A stretch of 64,000 nt of DNA from IMG/VR virus record IMGVR_UViG_3300045988_184255; one strand, written 5' to 3'. Position 1 is the first letter of the stretch, and every line of letters starts with the position of its first letter. Positions 3,528 to 29,575 of the stretch are shown here, piece after piece. The notes under the pieces were generated by a model, which was not told the DNA's origin, made no database searches, and saw only the letters and a program-made list of their open reading frames with translations. The position numbers and the translations under genes were made by a program. This DNA is from a virus.

Positions 3528-3661
3528 TTGACAAAATATCAAACTGTGGTAGTATAGAATTATAATTACGAAGCTATTTTTATAAAGGAGAGTATCTCCG
3601 TTTCAAGTCACCATACATAAATTCAGACAGTTATCCCAATCTTGGGTGGCTGTCTTTTTTT
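3528..3661 (+). promoter_or_regulatory. Cassette copy 1: promoter TTGACA-N16-TGgTAGTATAGAAT, SD-sequestering hairpin (GGAGA gta TCTCC), and leader hairpin agacagttatcccaa/ttgggtggctgtct plus T7
   Basis: Near-identical sequence occurs six times in the window at operon heads. Confidence 0.75.
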
Positions 3662-3726
3662 ATATATTTTTATACATTTTATATGCCCATAAGTCCTCTT
3701 AATAGGCAGGGAGAAAGGAGAAAAAT

Positions 3727-4758
3727 ATGGATGTGAAATCTCTCAACGGCTCATCCGGAAGATGGAGCGATATTAGTCTGGCCGTACCATTTGATACCGG
3801 CATGGATAGAAAGATTCGTGACAAGCTGATGGATGCCGTGGCGGAAGAACTGAAAGGCAACGCCAACTGCGGCTACGACCCTTTCGGTGCAGAACGCTTC
3901 GGCATCAAGCGCCATAACTGTGGCTACATTCAGAAAAACGGCAGCTACATCGTCGGTATTGGTATCCGCATTGTGATGGATACAAATTACGATTCAGACG
4001 TGTCCCGCGAGCTTATTCGTCAGGATATGCTTCCTGCTGTGCAGCGTGTGGCAGCACAGTTCGGCGTAAGGGCAACCGTTGTGGAACGGAGTTCGCAACT
4101 CTTCGATGCGGAGTTGGAGGACAAAACAATCAGGCGCAATGTTCTCATCAATCTGTTTGAGTGCAGATTTTACCGCACAGTATTCCATGACGAAGCGCAA
4201 GTTCCGACCGAAAAAATCGAGTGGGATGCCTACTGCGCTCACTGTGCGACTTTGCCACGGGACGTTCCGCCAAAACGTTTGCTGAATCCGAACGATTTCG
4301 GCATCACCTTCAAGAAGGGACGATATGAGTACGAACTCGTTGGTGTCTACAAGTACCGTCCGTGGAAGTACGTTGTTGGAAAGCGAATCGGCGAAGTCTC
4401 TACTGGCAAGGAAATCCTCATTCCCCGTGAGGAGATGGAGCAGATTTGCTACGAGCTGCAATGCACAGACAAGGATGCTCTGGCCTTGGAAAATGCCAAG
4501 GACGAAGAAGCCGCATTCTACCGCAACAAAGAGTATATCCGGCATCGACTTGAACGCTTTGGCATCGACATTTCCTACCGTGAGATGTACTCGTATGACG
4601 GACATGACTTTATCATCATCGGCATCCAGCCGAAAGCCCATACCTACCCCTTCGTGGTGCGTTGTGTGGATGAGGACGGTCCGATGTCCGGTAAGGTGAG
4701 CAAGCAGCGGTTATGGAACGTTTTGGACGTGATTGCTGCGGAACGCAGAAAGCAATAG
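3727..4758 (+). CDS. Paralog D of the Cys-x-x-DPFG tandem family (343 aa), first gene after cassette 1
   Basis: RBS gggagaaaggagaaaaat then ATG; NCGYDPFGAERFG, VPTEKIEWDA, ISYREMYS. Confidence 0.7.
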   Translation: MDVKSLNGSSGRWSDISLAVPFDTGMDRKIRDKLMDAVAEELKGNANCGYDPFGAERFGIKRHNCGYIQKNGSYIVGIGIRIVMDTNYDSDVSRELIRQDMLPAVQRVAAQFGVRATVVERSSQLFDAELEDKTIRRNVLINLFECRFYRTVFHDEAQVPTEKIEWDAYCAHCATLPRDVPPKRLLNPNDFGITFKKGRYEYELVGVYKYRPWKYVVGKRIGEVSTGKEILIPREEMEQICYELQCTDKDALALENAKDEEAAFYRNKEYIRHRLERFGIDISYREMYSYDGHDFIIIGIQPKAHTYPFVVRCVDEDGPMSGKVSKQRLWNVLDVIAAERRKQ

Positions 4759-4772
4759 AAAGGAGAATACCC

Positions 4773-5006
4773 ATGCAGACATTCTTAGGCACTGTCAGAG
4801 GTGTTGGTGTGATGCTGTTTGTGGCGTTCCTGCTGGTCGGCTCGTTGTGGCTCGGCCTTCATCACGTCACCTTCATCGGCGAAAAGTTCAAGGGACGTAC
4901 CGGCAGCTTGCTGGCCTACCTTGCACTCATCATCATCTTTGGCGGCGGGCTGGCATTGGCGGTCATTATCTCCATCCAGTGTCCTATCAGCCCGCTTCAT
5001 CAGTAG
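4773..5006 (+). CDS. Small membrane protein (77 aa, two predicted TM helices)
   Basis: RBS agaaaggagaataccc then ATG; hydrophobic stretches VMLFVAFLLVGSLWLGL and LLAYLALIIIFGGGLALAVIISI. Confidence 0.5.
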   Translation: MQTFLGTVRGVGVMLFVAFLLVGSLWLGLHHVTFIGEKFKGRTGSLLAYLALIIIFGGGLALAVIISIQCPISPLHQ

Positions 5007-5059
5007 GAATACATTTTGTTTCCCGTAAGACCTTTAAGGCTGGGAGAAAGGAGAAAATA

Positions 5060-7081
5060 ATGAGCAAAATTCATCTGTCCTTTTTAGCCCCCGGAAAGAA
5101 TTCCGGATACAAAGATACCGTAACGGACATCTACTACAAGGGTATGAATGTGGGGTACATCCTTGAGAACAGAGATACCCTCCGCGATGACACCAAGAAC
5201 TATATGGCATATCGGTTCGCCCATTGCGGCACTGATTATTGGGCTCGCGGCGAGTACATCTATGGCAGCCAATCTTCTACCATCGCAGGGGCAAAGGAGA
5301 AGTTCAGAGCTTGGTTCGAACGCGACGGCGTGGGCACTTACGAGAAGTCCGCGCCCAAGGTCAGACAGCGGCACGCCACCGCACCTGAAACTCTCACCTC
5401 TTACGTCTGCGGTAAGGCACTCCGCATGGTGGACTGGTCTGCCGTGCGCGATGGCGACATTCTGAACCCCATTTGCGGGGACATGAGTGAGCTGCAGCTT
5501 CACGAGTGCTTCCGTCGTTTTGCCGGCTGGTACAGAAACAAGAACAAGGTCTGGCAGCACGAAAGTGCATATTACGGTGAAAAGTATTTGGATACCGTGG
5601 TAGAAGATGTTTGTGTGGCGGAAACGCTGAAGGAAGAAGGCATCCGTGTCGTCTACGACGACTTTGCAAAGTTCAACACACTGAAACCCTATCCCCTCAT
5701 CATGTTCGCCCACACATCGGCGGTCTCCCCTGCTTTCGCTGCACGGTGGATTGGCAAATCTTTGACCATGCTGCGAAAATGCGGCGGTCAGCTTCTCGCC
5801 ATCCTTCCCTACTCCACACTGGCTGCAGACACTTCGCTGTCTTATATGCTGGAAACGAAGAGAATCAATGCCTCTATGTTCTATGTGGAGAAGGAGTTCA
5901 AGCGTGACAGAACGAGACGGACGGCTCCTGAGTGGGTAATTATCCATGTCAACGTCAAGCCGACGAACGCATATAGCCGGAATGAAGCGGATGTATTGAG
6001 CGAGAATCTTACGACTATGCGTGACTACGAGGTTCAGAAGCCGTTCCTTCCCGATTGGAGGAAGAAGTTTCCGCAGGACATCATTGAGGAATTTGAGCTC
6101 AAGGCTCGTATTTGCAACTCCTTCATTGGCTCCTACGAAGAGGTTAAGCCCTTTATAATGAGCGGCTCTGAGTGTTACGACCAGCCCTATGTCAAACTGG
6201 CCGTGGACGACCATCCTTGGAGGGATTCCGGCGTTGAACTTCGAATGGCGTGCTTGGAGAAGATTCGAGCACACTTTTGGAACGTTTTCATGAGCAGAGC
6301 TGCGAACACCGACTGTATGCCTGATGGACTGAAGTCCGATTATGAGCGGCTTCTTACGGAGCTGAAGGACTATGACCTCAACGACTACACGGTGAAGCGG
6401 GTACTGGAGGACATCCACAGGAAGCTGCATAGGGGTTGCACCACTTCCCTGCTGAACCTGTTCGATAGGCTTGGGAGTATGGGAAGTAGGCAACGGTATG
6501 ATGTGTACGATTACGATGTGGACACGCTATCAAGTGAGAACACCCAGAAATATTGCTCTTTCGACAAGAAACAGACCGCTGGGTTCCGTTTGGTGTTCCC
6601 GAACCTCTCTATGTACTACTACGTCTTCGACTGCTACAGAAATGCTTTCAATCAGGGTAAAGCCGCATATGTGGTGCATGATATGGAAAGCGCTCTGCAT
6701 CTTCTCAACGGTGGCAAGAATATACCTAACGCTATCGACCCGATGACTGCTGTCAACGATAATGTCACAAACGGGAAAAGCGCCGGTAAAAGTATCGCAT
6801 TCACGTTCTTTACCGGTTCTTTCTATAAGAAAGGCATTCTGAAGTTGAAGTTCAAGGACTCCGCCAAACTGCTCATCGACCGGCTGAACATTTTCGTCGG
6901 TATGAAGCGCGGCTGGTTGCCTGCTGACTACGGCACCAAGCCGTATGATGCTTTGAGTAACGCTGAAAAGAAAGTCATTGACAGCTTCCAAAGCCGTGAG
7001 GAGTACGATGCAGTCGTTGCAAATCCTGATGAGTACATCATCAAGGATTTCGACATTGAGAAGCTGTTTGAAGCGCGTTAA
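5060..7081 (+). CDS. Large protein of unknown function (673 aa)
   Basis: ATG 5060 preceded by an orphan copy of the cassette 3-prime motif (ttcccgtaagacctttaaggctgggagaaaggagaaaataATG); long ORF. Confidence 0.65.
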   Translation: MSKIHLSFLAPGKNSGYKDTVTDIYYKGMNVGYILENRDTLRDDTKNYMAYRFAHCGTDYWARGEYIYGSQSSTIAGAKEKFRAWFERDGVGTYEKSAPKVRQRHATAPETLTSYVCGKALRMVDWSAVRDGDILNPICGDMSELQLHECFRRFAGWYRNKNKVWQHESAYYGEKYLDTVVEDVCVAETLKEEGIRVVYDDFAKFNTLKPYPLIMFAHTSAVSPAFAARWIGKSLTMLRKCGGQLLAILPYSTLAADTSLSYMLETKRINASMFYVEKEFKRDRTRRTAPEWVIIHVNVKPTNAYSRNEADVLSENLTTMRDYEVQKPFLPDWRKKFPQDIIEEFELKARICNSFIGSYEEVKPFIMSGSECYDQPYVKLAVDDHPWRDSGVELRMACLEKIRAHFWNVFMSRAANTDCMPDGLKSDYERLLTELKDYDLNDYTVKRVLEDIHRKLHRGCTTSLLNLFDRLGSMGSRQRYDVYDYDVDTLSSENTQKYCSFDKKQTAGFRLVFPNLSMYYYVFDCYRNAFNQGKAAYVVHDMESALHLLNGGKNIPNAIDPMTAVNDNVTNGKSAGKSIAFTFFTGSFYKKGILKLKFKDSAKLLIDRLNIFVGMKRGWLPADYGTKPYDALSNAEKKVIDSFQSREEYDAVVANPDEYIIKDFDIEKLFEAR

Positions 7082-7106
7082 TTGTGAAAGGAGAATCATC
7101 TACTGC

Positions 7107-7139
7107 GAAAAGCGTCCCTGACGGGGCGCTTTTCTTTTC
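7107..7139 (+). terminator. Rho-independent terminator (gaaaagcgtccctgacggggcgcttttcttttc)
   Basis: GC hairpin plus T-run immediately 3-prime of the 5060..7081 stop. Confidence 0.7.
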
Positions 7140-7150
7140 GACTAAAACGA

Positions 7151-7286
7151 TTGACAAAATATCAAACTGTGGTAGTATAGAATTATAATTACGAAGCTAT
7201 TTTTATAAAGGAGATTATCTCCATTTTCCAAGTCACCATACGTAAATTCAGACAGTTATCCCAATCTTGGGGTAGCTGTCTTTTTT
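7151..7286 (+). promoter_or_regulatory. Cassette copy 2 (promoter plus leader hairpins)
   Basis: Same TTGACAaaatatcaaactgtggtagtatagaat ... agacagttatcccaatcttggggtagctgtcttttttat as copy 1. Confidence 0.75.
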
Positions 7287-7352
7287 ATATATTTTCATAC
7301 ATTTTGAGTTCCCGTAAGTCCTTATTACAGGCAGGGAGAAAGGAGAAAAACA

Positions 7353-7937
7353 ATGAGTGTCATCAACACCCGACTCGCCTATCTCTATCGTGATGCGGAC
7401 AACTACAAAGTTCGTCACGAGGTCGTTTTCGCCGGCCAGATGTCGGAGGAGGAAAAGATGCGTATTATCGCCAGTCTCGATGACGGCGAATACTTCATCC
7501 CCGGCCCTCTCGGTCTGAACGACGAGCGTTTCGGCAGTGAGACGGAGGCCGACCATCCCTTCTTTGAGTTCTGCTACTTCGAGGAAACCACGGATAAGCC
7601 GACGACCGATATCTCCATCGCCGAAATCGTCAAACGGTTCGAGGACAATGCCCATCTCTGGAAGGATTACGAGACTTCCTTGGAAGACGTTGAACTCAAC
7701 GAGGTAAACGACATCAAGATGCCCGCACCTGACACTGAGGAAGACCTCTCCCCCCGTGCCAAGGCTCTCCTGTTTGAGACGCTGGAGCTGTTCCGGAAGG
7801 AAATCAGCCCCAAGTTCTCCGACTGGAAGGATGCCGACGATTGGCTGTTCAGCAGCCTGAGTATCACCAAGGACGAGCTGCAGGATATCTACGCCGACCA
7901 TGACGTGATGGTCTATGGCGAGTCTGCGGCGGACTGA
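7353..7937 (+). CDS. Strongly acidic protein (194 aa, D/E-rich); speculative DNA-mimic or anti-restriction-like candidate
   Basis: RBS gggagaaaggagaaaaaca then ATG; high Asp/Glu content; first gene after the cassette. Confidence 0.6.
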   Translation: MSVINTRLAYLYRDADNYKVRHEVVFAGQMSEEEKMRIIASLDDGEYFIPGPLGLNDERFGSETEADHPFFEFCYFEETTDKPTTDISIAEIVKRFEDNAHLWKDYETSLEDVELNEVNDIKMPAPDTEEDLSPRAKALLFETLELFRKEISPKFSDWKDADDWLFSSLSITKDELQDIYADHDVMVYGESAAD

Positions 7938-7946
7938 GAGGCTGCT

Positions 7947-8195
7947 ATGGGCATTGGACGAGTCCTCACGTGGAAGTACGTCATCCGTGACAGCGATGGC
8001 TATACGCTTTGCGCTGACCCCAGAGCATCCGGCTACGCCTATTACTGGTCGAAAATCGACCATGATGGCGTGCAGCCCATCGTCTTCGGCGATAGGGCTC
8101 AGGCGCAGAGCTATCTCGACGCTATGCGGCACAACGAGCCGCTCAATCGCAGATGGGACCAATGTCGGGTCGAAGGCCCGTTCATGGATTTGTAA
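7947..8195 (+). CDS. Small protein (82 aa), unknown
   Basis: ORF closely follows the previous stop; weak RBS gagagg. Confidence 0.4.
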   Translation: MGIGRVLTWKYVIRDSDGYTLCADPRASGYAYYWSKIDHDGVQPIVFGDRAQAQSYLDAMRHNEPLNRRWDQCRVEGPFMDL

Positions 8196-8222
8196 GTCAA
8201 AAAATTGAAAGGAGAAAAAACA

Positions 8223-8885
8223 ATGTTCAAAATCATCAGCATCGACGAAACTCAGTTTTTCTGCAACGGCTGCGGGGAGGTATTCGTATGGGAGTTCAAC
8301 ACCCCCGACAAGAAGCCCCCCAAGGACTGGGATGGGCGGTATGACACCGCTTCCCTGTGCAGCATCAACGTTCCCGACTATCGCGGCGTGCCCGGACTGT
8401 ACCCCTCCGGCTTCGATACCAAGCTCGCCGAGTACGATAAGGAAAAGTACGAAGCATTCCTGAAGGGAGAGTATCAGCCTCCTGTGGAAGACATGGACTG
8501 GTACACGAAGGTGCCTCCCCTGCTGCGCTGGGCCTATTTCACCTGCTGGGCCGACAGCCTGAACTTCCCCACCTACATCGCCACTGTGAACGGCCAGCCG
8601 TGTTTGCTGATTATCGCAGAGGCCGGTGAGGAGATGTCCAAAAAGGACGGAAAGCGGGACGTCAGCATCCGCAAGGCGCTGATGGAATCTGGCCGCAAGC
8701 TGGCCGAGAAGCTGAACGCGGATGAGAAGCTGAAGAAGCTGCACGCAGATGTGCTGTTCCCCAAGGACACGGATACCCCGTTTTGCCAGTGGGAACTGTA
8801 TGTCGCCATCCCCGTGACGGAGAATGTCACCTTTGAGGACATCAAGGCCGTAGCGGACGTGATGGACGAGTGCATCGACTACTGA
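8223..8885 (+). CDS. Protein of unknown function (220 aa) with N-terminal CxxC pair
   Basis: RBS ttgaaaggagaaaaaaca then ATG. Confidence 0.6.
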   Translation: MFKIISIDETQFFCNGCGEVFVWEFNTPDKKPPKDWDGRYDTASLCSINVPDYRGVPGLYPSGFDTKLAEYDKEKYEAFLKGEYQPPVEDMDWYTKVPPLLRWAYFTCWADSLNFPTYIATVNGQPCLLIIAEAGEEMSKKDGKRDVSIRKALMESGRKLAEKLNADEKLKKLHADVLFPKDTDTPFCQWELYVAIPVTENVTFEDIKAVADVMDECIDY

Positions 8886-8946
8886 TGCCCAAATGAGGGC
8901 GGGGAAGTCCCCGCCCTCTCTTGCGAAGAAGAAAGGAGAATACATT

Positions 8947-9630
8947 ATGACCTTTAAGTCTGACAGACCTGTCGGGCGGTACTGCATTGTGCCGAATAGT
9001 TTGGTCGTGGACTACGACAAGACCATCATCTTCCGTGACCGGCGAGGTAATCCCGTGTTCACCCTGCCCAATGGCGGGAAACTGCTGATTACCGATGGGC
9101 CTCGTGCTGAACCCAAAGTCTACACCTGCCGGTTCATCGACGAGTCGCACTTCAAGCTGGCCGCAAAGGGCGAGGGTTCTTGGCCGTATCATCACGACCA
9201 GTTCATTGAGCGTATGGAGTCCATGCGCGGCTGTACCTATCGTCCTGAAAAGTTCGACACACGGCTGGGTGTCTATCAGCGCATCTATTCTGACAGAACC
9301 CGACTGACAGAGGAAGGAAAGCCTGTCACGTTTCGTGTCATGTTGGCACAGGAGTTTGACGACTTCGAGCGCCGCTGTTATGTGTCCTACTGCCGCAGCG
9401 AGAGCGTTGTGGCTGTGTCCACCTCTATCGTGTATCCCAAGAAAGAACGCTATAAGGAGTTCATTCCTGCAAAGGAATTTCTGGAGATGCTGCACGGTGA
9501 GCGTACGATGTCCGAAACGCTCAACAGGATGCCGCCGTTTACTGACCTCAATATTGAGTTCATGACGGCGTTCATCACCGACAACGACGAGGTTGGTCAT
9601 ATGGAACCCGCCGACGAGAAAGGAGACTGA
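8947..9630 (+). CDS. Protein of unknown function (227 aa)
   Basis: RBS gaagaaaggagaatacatt then ATG. Confidence 0.6.
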   Translation: MTFKSDRPVGRYCIVPNSLVVDYDKTIIFRDRRGNPVFTLPNGGKLLITDGPRAEPKVYTCRFIDESHFKLAAKGEGSWPYHHDQFIERMESMRGCTYRPEKFDTRLGVYQRIYSDRTRLTEEGKPVTFRVMLAQEFDDFERRCYVSYCRSESVVAVSTSIVYPKKERYKEFIPAKEFLEMLHGERTMSETLNRMPPFTDLNIEFMTAFITDNDEVGHMEPADEKGD

Positions 9631-9632
9631 AA

Positions 9633-12148: not shown

Positions 12149-12154
12149 CCCGCG

Positions 12155-12186
12155 AAAAAGCTCCCTTCGGGGAGCTTTTTCTTTTG
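12155..12186 (+). terminator. Rho-independent terminator (gaaaaagctcccttcggggagctttttcttttg)
   Basis: ttcg-loop hairpin plus T-run. Confidence 0.7.
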
Positions 12187-12196
12187 CCTGAAATCA

Positions 12197-12332
12197 TTGA
12201 CAAAATATCAAACTGTGGTAGTATAGAATTATAATTACGAAGCTATTTTTATAAAGGAGATTATCTCCGTTTTCCAAGTCACCTTAAAGAATCAAGACAG
12301 TTATCCCAATCTTGGGATGGCTGTCTTTTTTT
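12197..12332 (+). promoter_or_regulatory. Cassette copy 3 (promoter plus leader hairpins; leader variant accttaaagaatcaagacag)
   Basis: Repeat of the cassette; hairpin agacagttatcccaatcttgggatggctgtct plus T7. Confidence 0.75.
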
Positions 12333-14052: not shown

Positions 14053-14898
14053 ATGGATTCCAAGAAAAAGACAAACAAGACTCGTTGTAGGGCTTGCCCC
14101 GCATCCGGTTTTTGCTCCGATGTCTGCTACAATAGGGATGTTCCTGATGCCACCTGTGCTCATGCCGTGAAGTACGATAAGCTGAATAAGCGTGTCGCTT
14201 CGCTGGAGGGACAGGTTGAGACGGTGAAGTTCATGCCGCTGAAGCAGCGAGACGCCGAGCTGGAAAAACTGTGGGATGAGTTCACGGATGTCCCGATGAA
14301 TCCGGACACCGAGAAGATGGAGGATGCGTTCCTCCACTTCCCCGCCGGCACTCCTCGTGAAGACATCTGGCACTGGTTCGACGAACGCTATTCCAAGGGC
14401 ATCGCTGCGCTGCTTTACGGTCGTGGCGAGGACAACACAGCTACCATCGCTACTCTGACTTATCGGAACGAGCTGTGCTGCGAGTGCGACTCTGAGTTGT
14501 GCGCCTTTGCGGATGCTTCCGGTATTTGCCGTGCTCCGTTCATTACCGGCGCCGCGCCGCGTATCCACGAGGATGGCTGCGACGATTTCTGCAGTAAGTG
14601 CGATGCGGGCTGCACGGCCAGCGTCGCAGACAAGACTTCTGAGGCTGGACGGTATATGGTCTTCACGGACAGTCCCTACGTCAGAGACGCTCAGATTTAC
14701 TGCGGCACCATCGACGAAGATATCTATTCCGAGGAAAACGAGGATAACTGGTACGATACCAGCGGTCCTGTTCTGCTCGTTGACAGAGATTTCAAGACCC
14801 TCGATGAGCTGCGGAAAACGGTGATGAACTTCTATCCCGACATGGACCTTTGTACCCTGCGTGCCATTCGGGTCTCAGCGGAAACTGTCTGCCTGTAA
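14053..14898 (+). CDS. Cys-rich protein (281 aa), unknown
   Basis: RBS aaagaaaggagaaaataatc then ATG; many CxxC-type pairs. Confidence 0.6.
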   Translation: MDSKKKTNKTRCRACPASGFCSDVCYNRDVPDATCAHAVKYDKLNKRVASLEGQVETVKFMPLKQRDAELEKLWDEFTDVPMNPDTEKMEDAFLHFPAGTPREDIWHWFDERYSKGIAALLYGRGEDNTATIATLTYRNELCCECDSELCAFADASGICRAPFITGAAPRIHEDGCDDFCSKCDAGCTASVADKTSEAGRYMVFTDSPYVRDAQIYCGTIDEDIYSEENEDNWYDTSGPVLLVDRDFKTLDELRKTVMNFYPDMDLCTLRAIRVSAETVCL

Positions 14899-14912
14899 GG
14901 GAGGTGCCCACA

Positions 14913-15365
14913 ATGGATGCCTTTTTGGAAAAGCTCAAAAAGTCTTTTGTCGAACGTTTTACGTCTTTGATGGAAGACAACGGCGACTCCGTGACGGAAG
15001 CTGCGAGGATTATCGGTGTTGCTCCGGAAGCTGTCTCAACGTGGCTGCGTGGGCGTATCGTGCCGAGCATTGATTACTTCGCTAAAATTGCGGATGTTTA
15101 CAATGTCTCTGTTGATTATCTGCTGGGTCAATCTGAGACCCAGCAGATAAAAGACATCCCCGATGAGGCGGCATATCCGGCTGTTCCCGCACGAGCCTTC
15201 TACAACTCGGCACTACAGCTTATGGCAAAACAGAATTCTCTCATTTCCCAACAGAATGCGTTGTTGCAGCAACAGAACGCTATTCTGAAGGCAATGCAGC
15301 AGAAGGCCACTGTTGAGAACACATCTCTGCCTTCGACAGATGTGCCTCTTGGTTTGCCATTTTGA
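14913..15365 (+). CDS. XRE-family (Cro/cI-type) helix-turn-helix regulator (150 aa)
   Basis: TEAARIIGVAPEAVSTWLRGRIVPSIDYFAKIADVYNVSVDYLLG is a classic HTH_3 pattern; RBS gggaggtgcccaca. Confidence 0.7.
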   Translation: MDAFLEKLKKSFVERFTSLMEDNGDSVTEAARIIGVAPEAVSTWLRGRIVPSIDYFAKIADVYNVSVDYLLGQSETQQIKDIPDEAAYPAVPARAFYNSALQLMAKQNSLISQQNALLQQQNAILKAMQQKATVENTSLPSTDVPLGLPF

Positions 15366-15440
15366 GCAGAAAGGAGATTTTATAACCTTGGAGGGGGCTG
15401 TTGTTTGCAGCAGTCCTCTCTTTCTATACATAGTCTGTTT

Positions 15441-15470
15441 GACAGAGAGCGTACAAATGGGCTATAATAG
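15441..15470 (+). promoter_or_regulatory. Internal sigma-A-type promoter TTGACA-N18-TATAAT upstream of the small-gene/kinase pair
   Basis: Consensus -35 and -10 hexamers seen in the sequence; the flanking ctctct...gagag inverted repeat overlaps the -35. Confidence 0.55.
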
Positions 15471-15498
15471 AGTTGAAAATTGAAAGGAGGATACAACT

Positions 15499-15714
15499 AT
15501 GGAAGAATTCGTAAAGGGCGTATCCAAAACTTGCCTATATGAAGACCCTCACTGTGACGAAGAGGATGCGGAAATGGACCGTCGGATTTCGTCGGTAGCC
15601 TTTGAAGCCTATCAACGGGCAAAAATGAAAGGTATTCCTGTTGCTCGCTATGATGCAGAGAAAAAGTGTGCCTATTTACTGTATCCGGATGGGAGAATCG
15701 AGTATGTCAAATGA
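15499..15714 (+). CDS. Small protein (71 aa); epsilon-antitoxin-like partner candidate
   Basis: RBS ttgaaaggaggatacaact then ATG; overlaps the start of the downstream P-loop kinase by 11 nt. Confidence 0.45.
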   Translation: MEEFVKGVSKTCLYEDPHCDEEDAEMDRRISSVAFEAYQRAKMKGIPVARYDAEKKCAYLLYPDGRIEYVK

Positions 15715-16384
15715 GAAACAGCGGAAACCTTGCATTATCGTTTTCGCTGGGCCTAACGGGTCAGGTAAAAGCTCACTTACAAGTAGAGTAGATATACTAC
15801 CCCCGTATATCAACGCAGACGACATCAAAAAAGAAACTGGATGCAGCGATTTGGAAGCGGCACAGAAGGCTGATGCAATGCGCTTACAGTGTGTAGAATG
15901 GGGCGAAGATTTTACCTTCGAGACAGTTTTGTCCACGAATAAAAAACTGGAATTTCTAAAATATGCAAAAGAGCATGGGTATTTCATAAAAGGCTTTTTC
16001 GTTCTTACGAAAGACGCATCCGTAAACGTACTTCGTGTATGGGAACGTGTTCAATCTGGAGGCCACGACGTACCTGAAGAAAAGATTCGGTCTCGGTACG
16101 AAAAGTCTTTGGCAAGGGTTCAGGCCTTTGTTGACCTATGCGACATCTGCCATATTTATGACAACTCCGGCTCTTCAACGGATAGAATATTCAAGAAGGC
16201 ACATGGCGACACCTATAAATGCAGGGAAAATGCTTTCTGGAGCAAACAGGAAATCTGTGACCTCGTAGGCATCAAAAGCAATAATGTTGGAGAACTTCTG
16301 CTTTCCGACTATGAGAAGAAGCTCTGTAATTCACTTAATAGTGCTACTGAGACTGAGGAGGACGTAGATAGAAATGACAAGTAG
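15704..16384 (+). CDS. P-loop kinase resembling zeta-toxin family (226 aa)
   Basis: Walker A VFAGPNGSGKSS near the N-terminus; size and the overlapping small upstream gene fit an epsilon/zeta-like module. Confidence 0.5.
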   Translation: MSNEKQRKPCIIVFAGPNGSGKSSLTSRVDILPPYINADDIKKETGCSDLEAAQKADAMRLQCVEWGEDFTFETVLSTNKKLEFLKYAKEHGYFIKGFFVLTKDASVNVLRVWERVQSGGHDVPEEKIRSRYEKSLARVQAFVDLCDICHIYDNSGSSTDRIFKKAHGDTYKCRENAFWSKQEICDLVGIKSNNVGELLLSDYEKKLCNSLNSATETEEDVDRNDK

Positions 16385-17084
16385 CCTTGAGGTATTACGC
16401 TCTCATGCTATCTACATCAACCCGTCATTCAGCGAAAAGCCTATTAAGATACCTTCACAGATGTATCCGCTGACGGGGACAATGGAAGTGTTTAGCTACG
16501 GCAACACACTTCCATTTCCCTCAGGTGTAGAGACCGACACCATTCGACAGGCCTTCGATGCCACGGAGGTCGATGTCGGCTACTGCTATCAGAACACCCA
16601 GCGCATTCTGGACGCTCTGGTTGCCGCAGGCGTGAAGAACGCCGTTCCGTATGCCGGCTGGCTCTTCGTAGGCGATGCCGTCCCTACCCACCACAGCTTC
16701 ATCGTCGTAGATGGCAAGCATATCATCGACCCTCTCATTCGATTCGATAAGATGAATCTGGAAGCCTATGCCAACGAGGATGGAACCAAGACACCGGATT
16801 CAATCCGTGGGGCTTTCACGGACGAGGTCATCGAGATGATGAAGCGTCCCCATTCCGAAGTTATGACATTCGGGCAGGCCAGTCCGTTGAACTACTATGT
16901 GGCCGCAAAATGCAAGCCTTCAGAGGCGGTGGCGCGGTTCAGAAAGCTCATGACGGCTTTTCCAAAACATCCATCATATCAGAACATCAGACCGGATGGG
17001 ACAAACAAGACGCAGACGCTCTTCTATGAGAAACAAGGTAAGGATATGTACGCGCCGAAAATCAAAATGAAAGGAAATCTGTGA
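16374..17084 (+). CDS. Protein of unknown function (236 aa)
   Basis: ORF overlaps the previous stop; RBS gaggaggacgtagatagaa. Confidence 0.5.
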   Translation: MTSSLEVLRSHAIYINPSFSEKPIKIPSQMYPLTGTMEVFSYGNTLPFPSGVETDTIRQAFDATEVDVGYCYQNTQRILDALVAAGVKNAVPYAGWLFVGDAVPTHHSFIVVDGKHIIDPLIRFDKMNLEAYANEDGTKTPDSIRGAFTDEVIEMMKRPHSEVMTFGQASPLNYYVAAKCKPSEAVARFRKLMTAFPKHPSYQNIRPDGTNKTQTLFYEKQGKDMYAPKIKMKGNL

Positions 17085-17310: not shown

Positions 17311-17340
17311 AAAGAGGCCCGAAAGGGCTTCTTTTTTTTT
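17311..17340 (+). terminator. Rho-independent terminator (aaagaggcccgaaagggcttcttttttttt)
   Basis: GNRA-type loop hairpin plus T9. Confidence 0.7.
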
Positions 17341-17353: not shown

Positions 17354-17489
17354 TTGACAAAATATCAAACTGTGGTAGTATAGAATTATAATTACGAAGC
17401 TATTTTTATAAAGGAGATTATCTCCGTTTTCCAAGTCACCATACGTAAATTCAGACAGTTATCCCGTTTCGGGGATAGCTGTCTTTTTT
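17354..17489 (+). promoter_or_regulatory. Cassette copy 4 (promoter plus leader hairpins; hairpin variant agacagttatcccg tttc ggggatagctgtct with compensatory changes)
   Basis: Repeat of the cassette; the stem changes preserve pairing. Confidence 0.75.
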
Positions 17490-23180: not shown

Positions 23181-23267
23181 CTCAATTTTTGCTGAATTTG
23201 AAAGAAAGAAAACGCTCGAAAATGGCTTGGTTATGCGGTTTTCATGGACTATGTTTGTTCCTGTTCT

Positions 23268-23379: not shown

Positions 23380-23427
23380 ATCAAAAAACAGTGCAAATGT
23401 AATAAACGCAATTTGGTGCCTAAAATG

Positions 23428-23563
23428 ATTGACAAAATATCAAACTGTGGTAGTATAGAATTATAATTACGAAGCTATTTTTATAAAGGAGATTATCTCC
23501 GTTTTCCAAGTCACCACATAAATTCAGACAGTTATCCCAATCTTGGGGTAGCTGTCTTTTTTT
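23428..23563 (+). promoter_or_regulatory. Cassette copy 5 (promoter plus leader hairpins; lacks the ttcccgtaagtcct pre-RBS motif)
   Basis: Repeat of the cassette. Confidence 0.75.
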
Positions 23564-23607
23564 ATATATTTATTGCATTTTTCGACAACAAAGAAAGGAG
23601 AAACACC

Positions 23608-23790: not shown

Positions 23791-23823
23791 TGCAATCGAC
23801 TTCAAAAGAAAGGAGAAATTATT

Positions 23824-24129: not shown

Positions 24130-24335
24130 GTAAGCATCGTTGGACTATCGAGGAACTGAAGAACGTCAATGACGCTCAGTTCGCTATGGCGATTCTGATG
24201 GAACGCCGCAGTGAGTTATCGAATCCCTACACCCCGTTCGCACAGCGCCTTACCAGCGTCATCAATACGCTGACGGACATGGCTGTGGATGGCGGGCTGA
24301 CAGACGAAGAAAGGAGTAAGAACAATGGCCGCTGA
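24126..24335 (+). CDS. Small protein (69 aa) whose C-terminal 34 aa tail is duplicated at the end of the next gene
   Basis: GTG start overlapping the upstream stop; the tail YTPFAQRLTSVINTLTDMAVDGGLTDEERSKNNG recurs at 24670..24777. Confidence 0.45.
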   Translation: MSKHRWTIEELKNVNDAQFAMAILMERRSELSNPYTPFAQRLTSVINTLTDMAVDGGLTDEERSKNNGR

Positions 24336-24777
24336 AATGAGACTTTACCGCGTAACGGTTATCGGCAGCAATGCCGAAAGGAAGCGCGGAAAAGTGGTGG
24401 AAGAGGTCACAGTCAAGGTCGGAACCAAGTGGCTGACGGACGATAACGGTCGGCGTTACTACAAGGTGCCGCTTGAGGACGCAAACCGAAACCTCTACTT
24501 CCAGCTCAACACCATGTACTGCATGGACTACCGGCTGTATCAGACAGAGCAGGCCGCCAAGGATTACCTTCGGCAAGCGGAACTGCGTGTGGCGCTTTGC
24601 AAGGCGGTGAGCAATTTCGGCTTCAACGCTCCCCTGCCTGTGCTGGAGAAGGTCATGGATACGCTGAAATACACCCCGTTCGCACAGCGTCTCACCAGCG
24701 TCTTCAATACGCTGACGGACATGGCTGTGGATGGCGGGTTGACGGACGAAGAAAGGAGCAAGAACAATGGCTGTTGA
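24325..24777 (+). CDS. Protein (150 aa), first copy of a tandem duplicate pair
   Basis: ATG embedded in the upstream gene tail (aacaATGgccgctgaaatgag); N-terminal MAAEMRLYRVTVIGSNAERKRGKVVEEVTVKVGTKWLTD. Confidence 0.55.
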   Translation: MAAEMRLYRVTVIGSNAERKRGKVVEEVTVKVGTKWLTDDNGRRYYKVPLEDANRNLYFQLNTMYCMDYRLYQTEQAAKDYLRQAELRVALCKAVSNFGFNAPLPVLEKVMDTLKYTPFAQRLTSVFNTLTDMAVDGGLTDEERSKNNGC

Positions 24778-25135
24778 GATGAGACTCTACCGCGTGCCTA
24801 TTATCGGTAGTAATGCCGAACGGCGGCACGGAAAGGTGGTGGATGAGGTCACGGTCAAGGTTGGAACCAAGTGGCTGACAGACAATAGAGACTGTCGATA
24901 CTACAAGGCTCCTTCCGAAGATGCGAACAGAAATCCCTATTTCCAGCAGAACTCCATGTACTGGAGTACAGATTACCGGCTGTATCAGACGGAACAGGCT
25001 GCCAAGGACTATCACCATCAGGCGGAATTGCTCATAGCTCTTCGCAGAGCCGTTGGCGACTTCGGCTTCAACGCCCCGTTGACCGTGCTGGAGAAGGTCA
25101 TGGACACTCTCAAGGAAGGCGGATGCTTGAAATGA
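24767..25135 (+). CDS. Protein (122 aa), second copy of the tandem duplicate (MAVEMRLYRVPIIGSNAERRHGKVVDEVTVKVGTKWLTD)
   Basis: Same junction sequence as the upstream copy; about 70 percent identical. Confidence 0.55.
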   Translation: MAVEMRLYRVPIIGSNAERRHGKVVDEVTVKVGTKWLTDNRDCRYYKAPSEDANRNPYFQQNSMYWSTDYRLYQTEQAAKDYHHQAELLIALRRAVGDFGFNAPLTVLEKVMDTLKEGGCLK

Positions 25136-25911
25136 GTACAAAAATCTTTGACGCTTGGCGTATCAACTCTACCGACATCGGGGAGTTGGTCAAGCTCGGC
25201 AATGAGATTCGGGAAGTGCAGCAGAAGTCCTTCGTGGACGCTGTCTACAACTCGCTCGATTTCTGCCAGCTCGCTATCATCTTCGCCAAAAGGTCTGTAG
25301 AGAATGTCGAGGAACTCAGGCCTGTTTTTGCGTCAATCGCCGCGAACGTCGTTCACAAGTGTGTTCTGATGTACGACTGGACGCCGTCTTTCACGATGAC
25401 GGATAACGCCAAAAGCTCTGCGGAACAGATTCTGCAGAAGGAGGCTCAGAAACGGAAGATTTCATTGACAGTAGAGCAGAAGAAAAATTTGCTCGACGTT
25501 ATCACTGAAATCTACGAAATCGTCTCCCGTGATTGGCAGGCGTCACTGCTGTTCCTCAGGGGCGATAATGGCAGTACCTACATGAAAGGGTTCAATCTCA
25601 CCAGAGAAGCGACCCATTTCATCGACTCCCAATATCCCCGCTTTGAGTACACCGACCAGACGGAGATGAATATTTCAGACTTCAACGAGTACACACGGCA
25701 GTACATTGACGCTGCAAAGACGGAAGAAGAACGCTATGAGAGGCTCTTGGAGGCCCAGCACGAACGTGGAGAACTGTGGGACAAAGCATTCGCAGGCCAA
25801 AGTGTATGGCGCGATGCCGGTCTCTCCATCTCCCTTGTGCCGGCACAGCTTCAGGAACAGTTCGTGGCTATTCATTCCATCTGCAAAAAGGTGTTCGGTG
25901 TCGAAGCCTGA
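25132..25911 (+). CDS. Protein of unknown function (about 260 aa)
   Basis: ATG 25132, 13 nt after aaggaagg; the ORF could alternatively start at 25123. Confidence 0.5.
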   Translation: MSTKIFDAWRINSTDIGELVKLGNEIREVQQKSFVDAVYNSLDFCQLAIIFAKRSVENVEELRPVFASIAANVVHKCVLMYDWTPSFTMTDNAKSSAEQILQKEAQKRKISLTVEQKKNLLDVITEIYEIVSRDWQASLLFLRGDNGSTYMKGFNLTREATHFIDSQYPRFEYTDQTEMNISDFNEYTRQYIDAAKTEEERYERLLEAQHERGELWDKAFAGQSVWRDAGLSISLVPAQLQEQFVAIHSICKKVFGVEA

Positions 25912-25935
25912 CGAAAAAAAGAAAGGAGAAAAATC

Positions 25936-26577
25936 ATGGAGAATAACCAAAAAAACGCTGCGGAGGTCAAGACCAGCGTCCCTGACCTGATTCCGTCCAA
26001 CTACCGCGAAAAGGCAGAAGCACTGGGCTGGGTCATCGACGAGGACAAGGTCTGTGGTGTGTTCACGTTCAGGCAGTGGTCGCCTGCCGGCGAGGACTAT
26101 TCCTTCGACCTGTACGCCGACGATGACTTCTGCGACGGTGTGGCTGCTGCGGTGCGCCGTGTCTACGATGACTTTGACATCGACGAACACGTTGGACTGT
26201 TCGCAGAGGCTTCTATGAGAGGTGAGTCCGGCGTTCCGAAGCTGTCGATTCTTGTCGATGACGCTAAGGAAATCGACGAGATGCTTCTCACGCTCGCCGA
26301 AGCGTTTGAAGACATCGAATCTGATACATCAGAGCGGGAGCAGAAGGCATATACCCGCTGCTGCCCCAACTGTGGTGGCGTATCTTTCTCTGGTCATCAG
26401 GTCCTCCACATTGATGTGTTGGTTGACATCGAAACGGGAGATTTCCTCGGAAATATCAACGACGAAATCGAATCTAACATCTACGAGTCGTCTGACCCCT
26501 ACGGTCCATATCACTGCATGACCTGCGGATTTGAATGCGACAACCTTTCCGAGCTGGAAAAGAGCGAGGTGGAGTAA
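25936..26577 (+). CDS. Acidic protein with C-terminal zinc ribbon (213 aa)
   Basis: RBS aaaaagaaaggagaaaaatc then ATG; CCPNCGG...CMTCGFEC. Confidence 0.6.
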   Translation: MENNQKNAAEVKTSVPDLIPSNYREKAEALGWVIDEDKVCGVFTFRQWSPAGEDYSFDLYADDDFCDGVAAAVRRVYDDFDIDEHVGLFAEASMRGESGVPKLSILVDDAKEIDEMLLTLAEAFEDIESDTSEREQKAYTRCCPNCGGVSFSGHQVLHIDVLVDIETGDFLGNINDEIESNIYESSDPYGPYHCMTCGFECDNLSELEKSEVE

Positions 26578-26582
26578 CTCTA

Positions 26583-26744
26583 ATGTCGATTATTCTTTAC
26601 TTCGCACTGACCATTCTCGTGATGTGCGGCATATTCCTTGGCATAAGGAGACTGGACACACAGGACCTCTTGCCGCCAATCATCTGCAGCGTTTCTGTGG
26701 GCGTTATTATGGTGGAACTGTTCGCCCTTGTTCGGTGGTATTAA
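26583..26744 (+). CDS. Possible small hydrophobic peptide (53 aa)
   Basis: Hydrophobic ORF following gaggtggag. Confidence 0.3.
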   Translation: MSIILYFALTILVMCGIFLGIRRLDTQDLLPPIICSVSVGVIMVELFALVRWY

Positions 26745-26767
26745 CGGAGGTGAAGGACGTGTTCAAA

Positions 26768-26935
26768 ATGCTGACGAACCCCTTGTTTATAGCCTATGTC
26801 GTTCTTATCATCGCCGCAATGGTCGTCTCAGTCATAGCCGCAAAAAAATCAGACCAGCCAGAAATGCTTCCGGCTGCCTTTGGTACTATTGCGCTCACCA
26901 TCGTTTTGGTTATTGTAGCGGTCATAACCGGTTAA
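26768..26935 (+). CDS. Possible small membrane peptide (55 aa)
   Basis: RBS ggaggtgaaggacgtgttcaaa then ATG; TM-like sequence IAYVVLIIAAMVVSVIAA...IALTIVLVIVAVI. Confidence 0.35.
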   Translation: MLTNPLFIAYVVLIIAAMVVSVIAAKKSDQPEMLPAAFGTIALTIVLVIVAVITG

Positions 26936-27003
26936 ATTAAAGCCAGCGGGAGGGGCGCTCTGCCTCTCCCCTGCTTAAAAAAGAAAAGGAAGGAGATATT
27001 CGA

Positions 27004-27222
27004 ATGGCATACAGCATTGCTGAAATCGCGGCCATCAAAGCGGAGTATCCCGCAGGCACAAGAATCAGACTGAAACACATGGACGAAAGCAAGTTTCCTG
27101 TGGCAGACGGCACGACCGGTAAAGTCACTTATGTGGACGATAACGGCCAGATTCATATGCGTTGGGATAATGGCCGCACGCTGCCGCTCGTTCCGGGCGT
27201 CGATGATTTCGACAAAATCTGA
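27004..27222 (+). CDS. DUF4314-like small protein (72 aa)
   Basis: Pattern G(T/K)VTYVDDNGQIHMRWDNGRTLPLVPGVDDF matches the DUF4314 family as I recall it; RBS aaaaggaaggagatattcga. Confidence 0.5.
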   Translation: MAYSIAEIAAIKAEYPAGTRIRLKHMDESKFPVADGTTGKVTYVDDNGQIHMRWDNGRTLPLVPGVDDFDKI

Positions 27223-27254
27223 GCTGTTTTTTTCAAAAAGAAAGGAGAAAAATT

Positions 27255-28295
27255 ATGGGTAATACATCTATCGGAGCCGCTGCATCTTTCTGCAACGAGA
27301 ACACGCTGGTCAAGGTCTACCGCTATAATCCTAAGTACGACAGGTTCGAGACGACCTTCGTTCCTTTCAAGGACATCCGCAAGAGCGATTCTGTGAGCGT
27401 CTTTGCCAGTGATGGGCACGAGATGCACTTTTCCGTTCTCACAAATGCTTCTTTTAAGAAGGACGAGCGATACGGGAACGAGTGCGGTTGGTCTGTGAAA
27501 GTCACTGAGGACGGCGGCAAGACGGAGATGGTTCTTCGTCCCACCGATTTCGCGCCCTACATCATCAGCCTTTCCGTTACCGACGAAGGAGAGTGGCGCG
27601 GCTGCCGGCTGCTTTTCGAAAGCGTCCTCAACGACACCGAAGCTATCGTCAACAATATGCGGGCGCGATTCGAGCCGCGTGTTGCGCCGGAAAACACCTG
27701 CGGGCGGCATTCCGACACAGTTGCGGCCATGGCGAAGAGAGACCTTACTCGTGAGTGGACGGAGCAGTTCGGCTTCCGGCTCATTTCGGACAGCGTAAAC
27801 TTCGCCCAGTGCAGTGTGAAGGACATTCTCTCTGATAAGTTCTTCAATCCCCCTGCCATGGAGTTGACGTTCTTCGCCTATTCCGACGGCGAGTATTCAG
27901 CGTCCCCCCTGTTCTTTGCCAAACTGCCCGATTTGGGCGAACGGTACAACAAGCCTGAGGGACGTGCTGCAATCGCAGAACTGCTGCAGAAGCTGGATGA
28001 GATGTACGGCGACCTGCCTGAAGACACAACAAAATGGGCTCTGGAGTATCAGCTTTGGGCTCGTATGCTGCTGGCAGAAGGTGCGGTCATGCTGAATCCG
28101 AAGCACCTCGACCTCCCCGACTGCGCCTACGAATTCAAAACGCTGGCTTTCGGTAATAAAATGCTGAAAGACAGCGGTGACGGTATTGCGTGGGCAAAGG
28201 CTGTCAAAACACCTATCAGCGTAATCGCCGAGGCGTGGGAGAATGACATGAGCGAGTCCGGCGATGAGGCTTTTACCTGCATCGTGACGGGCTGA
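27255..28295 (+). CDS. Protein of unknown function (346 aa), first of a tandem paralog pair
   Basis: RBS aaagaaaggagaaaaatt then ATG; shares LTFFAYSDGEYS..PLFFAKLP...YQLWARMLL.EGAVMLNPK with the next gene. Confidence 0.6.
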   Translation: MGNTSIGAAASFCNENTLVKVYRYNPKYDRFETTFVPFKDIRKSDSVSVFASDGHEMHFSVLTNASFKKDERYGNECGWSVKVTEDGGKTEMVLRPTDFAPYIISLSVTDEGEWRGCRLLFESVLNDTEAIVNNMRARFEPRVAPENTCGRHSDTVAAMAKRDLTREWTEQFGFRLISDSVNFAQCSVKDILSDKFFNPPAMELTFFAYSDGEYSASPLFFAKLPDLGERYNKPEGRAAIAELLQKLDEMYGDLPEDTTKWALEYQLWARMLLAEGAVMLNPKHLDLPDCAYEFKTLAFGNKMLKDSGDGIAWAKAVKTPISVIAEAWENDMSESGDEAFTCIVTG

Positions 28296-28309
28296 AAGGA
28301 GAAAAACAT

Positions 28310-29362
28310 ATGGATATGCCGATTTCGAACAAGCGAAAGCTGCACTGCGACGAGAACGTACTGGTCCACATTGTGCGCTACTGCCATGATACGGATGACG
28401 CAGATGGCGACGGCGTCAGAGAGGTGGAAATGTACGTCCCCTTCAAGCACATTTGCAAGGGCGATGCCATTGATATTCCTGATAAGGACACCGACGATGC
28501 CTTCAGAACAACCGCCTATGCTGCGGAAGACGCTTCGTACAACGAGGCTAAGGCGGGTGGTTGGTTTGTGCCGGTCGCCTGCACTGGGCAGAAAGATTAC
28601 ATTCTGAAGCCCGACGATTTCGCACCTTGGCTCGTGACACTGAGCGTTGTGTTCACGAACGGGTCGTCCTGCAAGCTCTTTTTCGAGTGCGTGGAACGAA
28701 GCGAAGAGAAGCTGCGGGCAAACATCCGCAGAATCTTTGACGATGTGCCGACGCTGCGGCATGAGATGGGCTTCGTTGCCCTCGTCCGCCATATGGCATG
28801 GAAGTACCTCACACCGGAAAGAACGGAGCCTCTCGGCTTCAGATTCCTTTCGGATGATGTCGTCTGGAGCAACTGCAAAGTGAAGGACATCCTTCCTGAC
28901 CGGTTCTTCGCGGCGGCTGACATGAAGCTGACGTTTTACGCCTATGCGGAAGATGAGTATTCTGGGAATCCTCTGTTCTTTGCAAAGCTGCCGTATCTCG
29001 GTACGCATCACGGACATCCTGAAGGTTGTGTGATTTGCGCTTCCATCCTGCGGAAACTGGATGAGCTGTATGGCGACCTGCCGACGGAAACGTCCCGTTG
29101 GTCGCTGGAATACCAGCTCTGGGCGCGTATGCTGCTCTCTGAGGGAGCAGTTATGCTCAATCCGAAGTACATTGACTTGCGCCAAGACGGTGCGCTTGAT
29201 GCGCTTCTGGAGGACATTCCGATGATTGATGGTTTCGCCGATGACGTCGCTTGGCGTCGTGTGGCAGGTGTACCCATCGACGAAATCCATGAAGTGTGGG
29301 ATGCGAGTTCGGATGATGGTGTCGCTCCGTTCACCTATACCGTCCGAGCAAAAATCCTTTGA
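28310..29362 (+). CDS. Protein of unknown function (350 aa), second paralog
   Basis: RBS ctgaaaggagaaaaacat then ATG; about 45 percent identical to the upstream neighbour over the C-terminal 200 aa. Confidence 0.6.
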   Translation: MDMPISNKRKLHCDENVLVHIVRYCHDTDDADGDGVREVEMYVPFKHICKGDAIDIPDKDTDDAFRTTAYAAEDASYNEAKAGGWFVPVACTGQKDYILKPDDFAPWLVTLSVVFTNGSSCKLFFECVERSEEKLRANIRRIFDDVPTLRHEMGFVALVRHMAWKYLTPERTEPLGFRFLSDDVVWSNCKVKDILPDRFFAAADMKLTFYAYAEDEYSGNPLFFAKLPYLGTHHGHPEGCVICASILRKLDELYGDLPTETSRWSLEYQLWARMLLSEGAVMLNPKYIDLRQDGALDALLEDIPMIDGFADDVAWRRVAGVPIDEIHEVWDASSDDGVAPFTYTVRAKIL

Positions 29363-29395
29363 TTCTTTCGCTTCAAGACAAACCACATTTTTTCA

Positions 29396-29426
29396 AAAGA
29401 AGCTCCTTCGGGAGCTTCTTTTTTTG
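29396..29426 (+). terminator. Rho-independent terminator (aaaagaagctccttcgggagcttctttttttg)
   Basis: ttcg-loop hairpin plus T-run. Confidence 0.7.
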
Positions 29427-29437
29427 CGCCAAAAGGA

Positions 29438-29575
29438 ATTGACAAAATATCAAACTGTGGTAGTATAGAATTATAATTACGAAGCTATTTTTATAAAGGA
29501 GATTATCTCCGTTTTCAAGTCACCACAAAGAATCAAGACAGTTACTTCCCTTTTCTGGGAAGTGACTGTCTTTTT
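29438..29575 (+). promoter_or_regulatory. Cassette copy 6 (promoter plus leader hairpins; hairpin variant agacagttacttccc ttttct gggaagtgactgtct)
   Basis: Repeat of the cassette with covarying stem bases. Confidence 0.75.

Follow-up and report, generated by a model that had tools for sequence, protein, structure and literature searches.

We analysed a stretch of 64,000 nucleotides filed as IMG/VR virus record IMGVR_UViG_3300045988_184255, here called the window at its full length, in which a hairpin recurs six times on the + strand. Each hairpin belongs to a cassette of approximately 200 bp that runs from an operon-end terminator through a promoter, a leader with a second, smaller hairpin, the terminator hairpin, the motif TATAT and a ribosome-binding region to a start codon. 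An earlier note on this DNA had called the hairpin a leader terminator and proposed that its pairing is kept by selection while its sequence drifts. The stem covaries extensively among relatives, and the hairpin is probably an intrinsic terminator that transcription passes with the help of a partner.

The repeated cassette and its predicted terminator hairpin

The six hairpins lie where the earlier note had placed them. The 9-mer AGACAGTTA has six exact matches in the window, all on the + strand (chance expectation 0.26), with starts at 3625, 7250, 12295, 17453, 23526 and 29536, and all six copies fold into an RNA stem of 13-16 bp with 5-6 G-C pairs and a loop of 4-6 nt. Directly after the stem, every one of the six has 4-6 further T. 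Predicted energies range from -16.4 to -25.8 kcal/mol for the stem-loop alone and from -18.6 to -30.1 kcal/mol with flanks, with z-scores of -5.5 to -8.9, and a simple terminator scan independently listed four of the six. Copy 1 (stem-loop 3625-3655, T-run 3656-3661) carries a 1-nt deletion in its 3' arm and has the weakest stem (-16.4 kcal/mol). Copy 2 (7250-7281, T-run 7282-7286) has 14 bp and a 4-nt loop, and copy 5 (23526-23557, T-run 23558-23563) is the same; copy 3 occupies 12295-12326 (T-run 12327-12332). Copy 4 (17453-17484, T-run 17485-17489) combines 13 bp with a 6-nt loop, GUUUCG, and copy 6 (29536-29571, T-run to 29575) is two pairs longer, with 15-16 bp and -25.8 kcal/mol.

Aligned from the stem base, copies 1-5 share the 5' arm GACAGUUAUCCC, and the 3' arm alone carries their stem differences. 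In copies 1-3 and 5, A or G stands opposite U7 and U9 and gives either A-U or G.U; the supposed T substitution of copy 1 is the deletion of one 3'-arm base. For copy 4 a compensated change from cccaa/ttggg to cccg/cggg had been claimed. That example fails: pairing in the CCCG/CGGG register would disrupt the remainder of the stem, UAUCCC/GGGAUA is retained at minimum energy, and the change sits in the loop, where GUUUCG replaces a 4-nt loop closed by A-U. The paired substitutions reported for copy 6 are real. Counted from the base, pairs 10 and 11 are U-A for C-G and pair 9 is C-G for U-A/U.G, which is equivalent to a 2-bp insertion in which CT in one arm is matched by AG in the other. True compensation inside the window is confined to copy 6, possibly through a single event, and the remaining differences are wobble toggles. 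The proposal of compensation across all six copies stands for copy 6 alone; two of its three specific examples were misread, the differences being mostly A or G opposite U.

The predicted promoter is of the consensus Firmicute type, with TTGACA, a 16-nt spacer ending in a TGTG -16 motif, and TAGTAT. It lies 97-99 nt upstream of the hairpin in each window copy, and the hairpin begins about 60-65 nt into the predicted transcript. A perfect TATAAT is found 5 nt past the -10 TAGTAT. In relatives the promoter spacer varies with the hexamers unchanged, and this second -10-like TATAAT is kept in all clades while the five intervening nucleotides vary; one of the collection patterns required TATAAT, and the loci retrieved by protein, L038 and L040, have it too. 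From TTGACA through CAAGTCACC, a span of about 90 nt, nearly every column of the six-copy alignment is invariant, the exceptions being one loop base of the small hairpin and a G/T-run just after it, and variation sets in just before the terminator. The approximately 60 nt of transcribed leader are conserved as strongly as the promoter. The small hairpin reads GGAGA-UUA-UCUCC (loop GUA in copy 1), and GGAG-loop-CUCC is present in 103 of the 105 unique modules collected from relatives, with an invariant 4-bp core.

Promoter and leader of copy 1 span 3528-3624 (+), with the -35 TTGACA at 3528-3533, followed by TGTG, the -10 TAGTAT at 3550-3555, TATAAT at 3561-3566 and the small hairpin at 3587-3599. 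Layout and offsets of copies 2-6 match those of copy 1 as far as the small hairpin; on the same strand they occupy 7151-7249, 12197-12294, 17354-17452, 23429-23525 and 29439-29535, with small hairpins at 7210-7222, 12256-12268, 17413-17425, 23488-23500 and 29498-29510, respectively. The post-terminator 5' untranslated region (UTR) of copy 1 (3662-3729) consists of the invariant TATAT and a ribosome-binding region, CCCATAAGTCC..AGGCAGGGAGAAAGGAGAAA, with the ATG at 3727. Across copies the conserved ribosome-binding region is CCCGTAAGTCC..AGGCAGGGAGAAAGGAGAAA. The start codons after copies 2-6 lie at 7353, 12396 (GTG), 17554, 23608 and 29643 (+), and copy 5 has a UTR of the shorter class. A GC-rich terminator of the preceding operon lies at 3487-3512 (+) and is separated from the copy 1 promoter downstream by some 15 nt; its equivalents are at 12154-12181, 17311-17334 and ~29400-29420 (+), and such operon-end terminators precede most modules in relatives as well.

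The UTR/ribosome-binding element also occurs on its own. One such element, with neither promoter nor terminator, lies at 5008-5062 (+) before an internal DUF4942 gene, and UUCCC-GUAAG-N-CCU..AGG-C-AGGGAGAAAGGAGAAA stands alone at 13 further sites in related loci (for example L001:11282-11336 and L040:11063-11113). Its inner hairpin changes from CCU/AGG to CCG/CGG in L038:13457-13652. The element looks like a separable translation or mRNA-stability module.

At the start site a 10-bp perfect palindrome, AATTATAATT, is conserved. Because of this palindrome, an opposite-strand promoter-like site, TTTATA-16-TATAAT, overlaps the start-site region at 3586-3559 (-) and at the same spot in every cassette; it would drive transcription divergently from the main promoter, in the direction of the preceding terminator, which looks bidirectional. 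A leader peptide was considered and rejected: a Shine-Dalgarno-like AAGGAG is present, but no start codon follows it, and indels between copies shift the frame.

Stem covariation and concerted leaders in relatives

Homologues were gathered with promoter or leader patterns or through an adjacent protein; the hairpin itself never served as a query. Two pattern scans of IMG/VR, together with protein-based retrieval of 86%- and 53%-identical relatives, gave about 1 Mb of related DNA, in which a profile search with the six copies found 169 full cassettes, 105 of them unique (105-108 depending on the length compared), with 45 distinct hairpins. The count of pairs began at the base of the stem, with the flanking T-run as anchor, and covered 12 basal pairs and 408 cells. 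Across the 45 distinct hairpins, standard pairs fill 98.5% of the cells, and two-sided changes are seen at nine of the 12 stem pairs, such as the replacement of A-U by G-C at pair 8 and of C-G by U-A at pair 10. Not one of 500 column shuffles reached any of five pairing measures, and when registers were slid by 1-3 columns just 33-56% of cells remained paired. The most diverged modules carry wholly different stems, GAGACCAUCAUC/GAUGAUGGUCUC and GGCAAUCACUUCC/GGCAGUGAUUGCC, at the same position, and all 105 unique modules have at least four T after the stem.

A plain MAFFT alignment of the 105 unique modules, from approximately the transcription start to the start codon, was also given to RNAalifold. 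The resulting consensus contains the terminator helix alone, with 10 of its 13 pairs compensated. A search for homologues that break the stem without compensation found six unpaired cells among the 408, all within the four apical pairs, and the stem claim stands. The proposal that pairing is preserved while the sequence drifts is thereby strongly borne out, and selection on secondary structure rather than on sequence is supported by the two-sided changes, the shuffles, the slid registers and RNAalifold alike. Covariation of this kind is expected of any functional intrinsic terminator, and is routine and unremarkable by itself.

Several asymmetries concern the strand on which the structure forms. 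Roughly 15% of the stem cells hold G.U pairs, in which U almost always lies on the 5' arm; on the opposite strand they would be A.C mismatches. The + strand RNA fold is more stable than that of the complement in 41 of the 45 hairpins, by 6 kcal/mol in the mean, and only the + strand has the T-run behind the stem. Because of this G.U bias, the strand asymmetry and the + strand-only T-run, the hairpin appears to act as RNA rather than DNA.

Promoter and leader, by the measure of sequence identity, evolve in concert within a plasmid: identity is 93% among paralogues of one plasmid versus 76-83% between positional orthologues. In the 105-module alignment, the clade in which AAAGGAGA precedes the small hairpin shows 6-8 U past the terminator, and the AAGGAGA clade has 5 U. 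As a side observation, UAUAAAGGAGA is able to pair with UCUUUUUUAUA, a pairing that takes in the invariant AUAU behind the T-run, and the correlation with U-run length is a single one at the level of clades. A metagenome scan for a further leader clade, using a pattern that excluded both known leader variants, returned 13 chance matches only.

Predicted termination and read-through

All the sequence hallmarks of an intrinsic terminator are found together in the hairpin, namely a stable G-C stem that covaries, a short loop and a U-run, downstream of a predicted promoter, and the label of leader terminator is supported by the stem and T-run in this position. We consider it likely that the hairpin is an intrinsic terminator in a repeated promoter-leader cassette and that read-through is most plausibly achieved by a trans-acting factor. 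Under this model, a strong promoter of the host sigma-A type would start the + strand RNA, which would be terminated at the hairpin some 60-65 nt in. By default most transcripts would end there as an RNA of about 95 nt and the operons would be kept low, and productive expression would need read-through. This could be provided by a factor that recognises the conserved leader or promoter-proximal region, in the manner of LoaP or of lambda N/nut and Q/qut. Since such a terminator would need only to fold, its stem could drift through G.U intermediates and compensatory changes; the recognition part would be expected to stay near-identical among the copies of one plasmid and to change in concert between plasmids.

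The folds of the leader bear on whether the RNA alone could regulate. The leader without the 3' arm folds at a mean of -7.6 kcal/mol, compared with -19 kcal/mol for the terminator, and 80 of 105 modules have no more than 3 nt of the 5' arm tied up in this leader-only fold. Neither the leader folds of the 105 modules nor the RNAalifold consensus contains a competing antiterminator helix. Searched against Rfam at the gathering threshold, the window gave one tRNA only, and a permissive scan of one module gave only matches far below threshold; on these scans, the hairpin is outside any curated RNA family. Given that there is neither a competing antiterminator fold nor an Rfam match, read-through is most likely helped by a factor. 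That such a partner would recognise the promoter-proximal part is suggested by a leader as conserved as the promoter, by paralogues that are more alike than orthologues, and by conservation that fades before the terminator.

Known systems offer partial parallels. Like the leader intrinsic terminators of Bacillota, the hairpin has a stem of 13-16 bp and then 5-8 U, is strand-specific, is maintained through G.U and compensatory changes, has a variable loop, and sits between promoter and first gene; unlike in Bacillota leader attenuators, there is no sensor or alternative fold here, and a single replicon carries copies of one leader terminator in front of at least 14 operons. In the LoaP-controlled dfn and mln operons of Bacillus velezensis, a small leader RNA hairpin needed for antitermination precedes an intrinsic terminator (PMC12691694). 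The cassette has a predicted small hairpin and a leader terminator in the same order, and a near-identical hairpin is likewise common to several operons. The LoaP hairpin, however, has a UNCG tetraloop, compared with a UUA/UUUA loop on a GGAG/CUCC stem in the cassette, and there are at least 14 targets rather than two, with no protein of the NusG/KOW type (LoaP is a NusG paralogue) in the plasmid parts scanned. Conjugation operons in Gram-positive bacteria commonly have attenuators and antitermination, and pLS20 combines a zipper-type attenuator, cATT, with processive antitermination by ConAn1/ConAn2 (PMC13401043, PMC8191782). Shared with pLS20 are a Gram-positive conjugative plasmid, a strong promoter and a leader attenuator terminator before transfer genes, with terminators as checkpoints against spurious transcription. 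The pLS20 leader, however, is a single one of 456 nt, has a central stem that is long and imperfect, and includes a complementary antiterminator, whereas the present leader is multi-copy, about 95 nt long and without such a stem, and ConAn1 (Pfam pXO2-34, PF17362) was not detected among the approximately 130 plasmid proteins scanned. Membership of the zipper attenuators was rejected, the long central stem and complementary flanks being absent (PMC13401043).

A further parallel comes from lambdoid phages. In PR'/qut/Q/tR', with its short 6S transcript, and in N/nut, a constitutive strong promoter is followed by nearby termination unless RNA polymerase is modified promoter-proximally. The TATAAT 5 nt after the real -10 resembles the sigma-dependent pause element of lambdoid late promoters, and the 5-bp hairpin recalls boxB. 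The differences are the phylum, a plasmid rather than a phage, many copies rather than one or two, and the fact that no Q or N homologue was identified.

The search for a factor encoded on the plasmid covered several candidates. PDB sequence searches with the two genes behind the transfer-operon module and with a helix-turn-helix/sigma-r4-like protein (47924-48841) showed no antiterminator, and the two genes, the first to follow that module, matched nothing in Pfam or the PDB. No Q-family protein, at which no dedicated search was aimed, turned up among the Pfam matches of the scanned proteins. A NusG-type gene may lie in the host genome or elsewhere on the plasmid. Two adjacent small paralogues in the window (24325-24777 and 24767-25135) have weak, sub-threshold matches to a domain like the C-terminal part of phage ProQ (E ~0.002). 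Proteins of the ProQ/FinO type bind terminator hairpins that carry a U tail. The two ProQ-like paralogues may serve as a lead for an RNA-binding partner, and no more than a lead.

A number of points weigh against factor-assisted read-through at a leader terminator. Termination and read-through are themselves predicted from sequence. No member of the antiterminator families NusG/KOW, pXO2-34 (ConAn1, PF17362), ANTAR or CAT_RBD was found by Pfam in about 130 plasmid proteins, a set that covers roughly two thirds of the plasmid. At each operon end a good GC-rich terminator stands just before the next cassette, which fits poorly with antitermination that is fully processive and blind to terminators. 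The identity of leader copies could partly reflect gene conversion instead of recognition by a factor. Lastly, the fifth pair of the small hairpin is A-U in 85 modules, C-G (compensated) in three and broken in 14, and covariation cannot validate this hairpin because its core is invariant.

An extension of the model is offered tentatively, and we think it more doubtful than probable: nearly all transfer, establishment and accessory genes, in at least 14 operons over about 145 kb, might form one regulon in which a single plasmid-encoded antiterminator outside Pfam opens all checkpoints in an all-or-none manner, with the leaders co-evolving with the factor.

Among the alternatives, the best placed, though in our view unlikely, is an unregulated dampener or insulator, in which a leaky terminator sets a fixed low output from a very strong promoter and, jointly with the preceding operon-end terminator, insulates neighbouring operons, no factor is involved, and any regulation is exerted by a repressor at the invariant promoter region. 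Such an arrangement would be consistent with the lack of an antiterminator gene among the scanned proteins and with terminators in tandem, an operon-end terminator lying before every cassette. The invariant region also covers the promoter and the start-site palindrome, a possible operator, and the window contains an XRE-type helix-turn-helix gene at 14850-15365. However, with stem energies of -16 to -26 kcal/mol and an unbroken run of 5-8 U, the hairpins resemble efficient rather than leaky terminators, a strong terminator after a consensus promoter in at least 14 operons would be a costly route to low expression, and a DNA operator alone leaves the conservation of the 60-nt transcribed leader unexplained.

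It is also conceivable, if improbable, that the terminated RNA of about 95 nt is itself the product, as a multi-copy small RNA (for instance a sponge or an anti-Shine-Dalgarno regulator), with operon read-through secondary. Its first ~60 nt are near-identical in all copies and contain both the Shine-Dalgarno-like AAGGAG and an anti-Shine-Dalgarno-like UCUCCGUUUUCC. Single-sequence folding of the full length places the latter opposite the actual ribosome-binding site GGGAGAAAGGAGA in the minimum-energy structure, and attenuator-derived small RNAs such as rnTrpL are known (PMC6614838). This long-range pairing was rejected, however, as RNAalifold does not recover it in the consensus and the bases involved are invariant. 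Moreover, every copy stands directly before an operon and is followed by the conserved ribosome-binding region, no copy is found alone, and no Rfam family matches.

An RNA-only switch (riboswitch, T-box or zipper), in which the leader toggles between antiterminator and terminator in response to a signal, is highly improbable. The 5'-leader position is typical of such switches and zipper-type attenuators precede the conjugation operons of many Gram-positive plasmids (PMC13401043), but the terminator 5' arm has no stable or conserved alternative pairing, and the leader offers just ~60 nt of AU-rich RNA with a consensus fold that lacks a second helix and without an Rfam match. Least credible of all is a DNA-level element, either a protein-binding palindrome or a single-strand initiation or priming hairpin in the transferred strand: a conjugative host does pass through a single-stranded stage and the copies recur every 3.6-6 kb, but the ~15% of stem cells that are G.U (G.T) are mismatches in the complement, the stem varies freely in sequence and the loop in length with no half-site conserved, the T-run is always on the + strand, directly after the stem and downstream of a promoter, and the promoter region is not self-complementary, unlike that of single-strand promoters.

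The host element and its genes

The first gene behind copy 1 recurs on metagenome contigs of 189.8-192.7 kb; the 190-kb contig is represented by IMGVR_UViG_3300045988_183936 or ERZ15242085 NODE_27. On a contig of 190,756 bp, cassettes lie at approximately 75.6, 127.0, 132.9, 142.6, 150.8, 172.3, 175.4, 178.7, 185.2, 188.8, 4.0, 9.1, 16.5 and 22.1 kb of the circle, all on one strand, and the last six of these 14 positions are the window copies. At least 14 co-directional operons are headed by a cassette, including a diverged copy before the transfer operon. Genes on this contig encode ParA, RepL-type replication proteins and a tip-pilin-like adhesin. The operon behind the most diverged cassette encodes primase-like and TrbC/VirB2-like proteins, an SSB-like gene stands behind another cassette with a TraI_2 domain protein nearby, and the element also carries giant SpaA/TQ/thioester adhesins and a topoisomerase. 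PHROGs found no virion or structural genes in the window, its matches being regulators, MazF, CobT and proteins of no known function. A phage identity was rejected on these grounds, plasmid replication, partition and transfer genes being present instead. Since RepL, ParA and transfer genes are present and virion genes were not found in the window, we read the element as a conjugative megaplasmid of about 190 kb from a Gram-positive gut bacterium.

The plasmid is prevalent in the human gut, Hadza samples included. A blastn search of curated phage and plasmid records with one module and with an 8-kb stretch returned nothing related, and neither the exact leader pattern nor a protein-based scan matched any GTDB genome. 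RepL, ParA, primase-like, TrbC/VirB2-like, SSB-like, TraI_2 and giant LPXTG-type adhesin genes were observed in L095 (IMGVR_UViG_3300045988_183936: 68207-81951), L050 and L120-L122, and the parts covered contain no virion genes. These IMG/VR 'viral' contigs look like conjugative plasmids misfiled as viruses, a group flagged here for its plasmid-type genes of replication, partition and transfer.

Taken alone, the hairpin is ordinary, and what is less usual is a multi-copy, concertedly evolving promoter-leader-terminator cassette before nearly all forward operons of a large uncultured plasmid. The cassette offers a compact, testable cis-element of about 130 nt that might serve as bait for a new antitermination or repression factor, and it could help to explain how very large Gram-positive conjugative plasmids silence costly genes.

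Further observations concern the genes around the cassettes. Four tandem genes in the window (276-1295, 1314-2351, 2373-3467 and 3727-4758, together spanning 276-4758) encode paralogous proteins of ~340-365 aa that are 26-34% identical to the first and have no confident Pfam match (faint Y4mA_C); the copy 1 cassette lies between the third and the fourth. Inside operon 3, a perfect consensus promoter, TTGACA-18-TATAAT (15439-15468), is found without the cassette leader, after the XRE-type helix-turn-helix gene (14850-15365) and before a zeta-toxin-like gene (15641-16384). In related loci, RRXRR-domain (HNH-like) genes lie between cassette-driven genes (L038:6088-7473, L040:6959-8443 and 15183-16667) and are absent at the same places in the window; they look like mobile endonuclease genes, and one such insertion is followed by an extra cassette (L040:8558).

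Towards the right end of the window, the exact protein encoded at 63137-63967 (-) is absent from the 190-kb contigs and occurs in other small elements (L118, L119), next to RelB, RepB-regulator and Rep_trans genes. This end of the window may therefore be a variable or recently acquired segment. A tRNA-Ser (anticodon TGA) at 41314-41401 (-) lies near the breakpoint of the circle in several metagenome assemblies.

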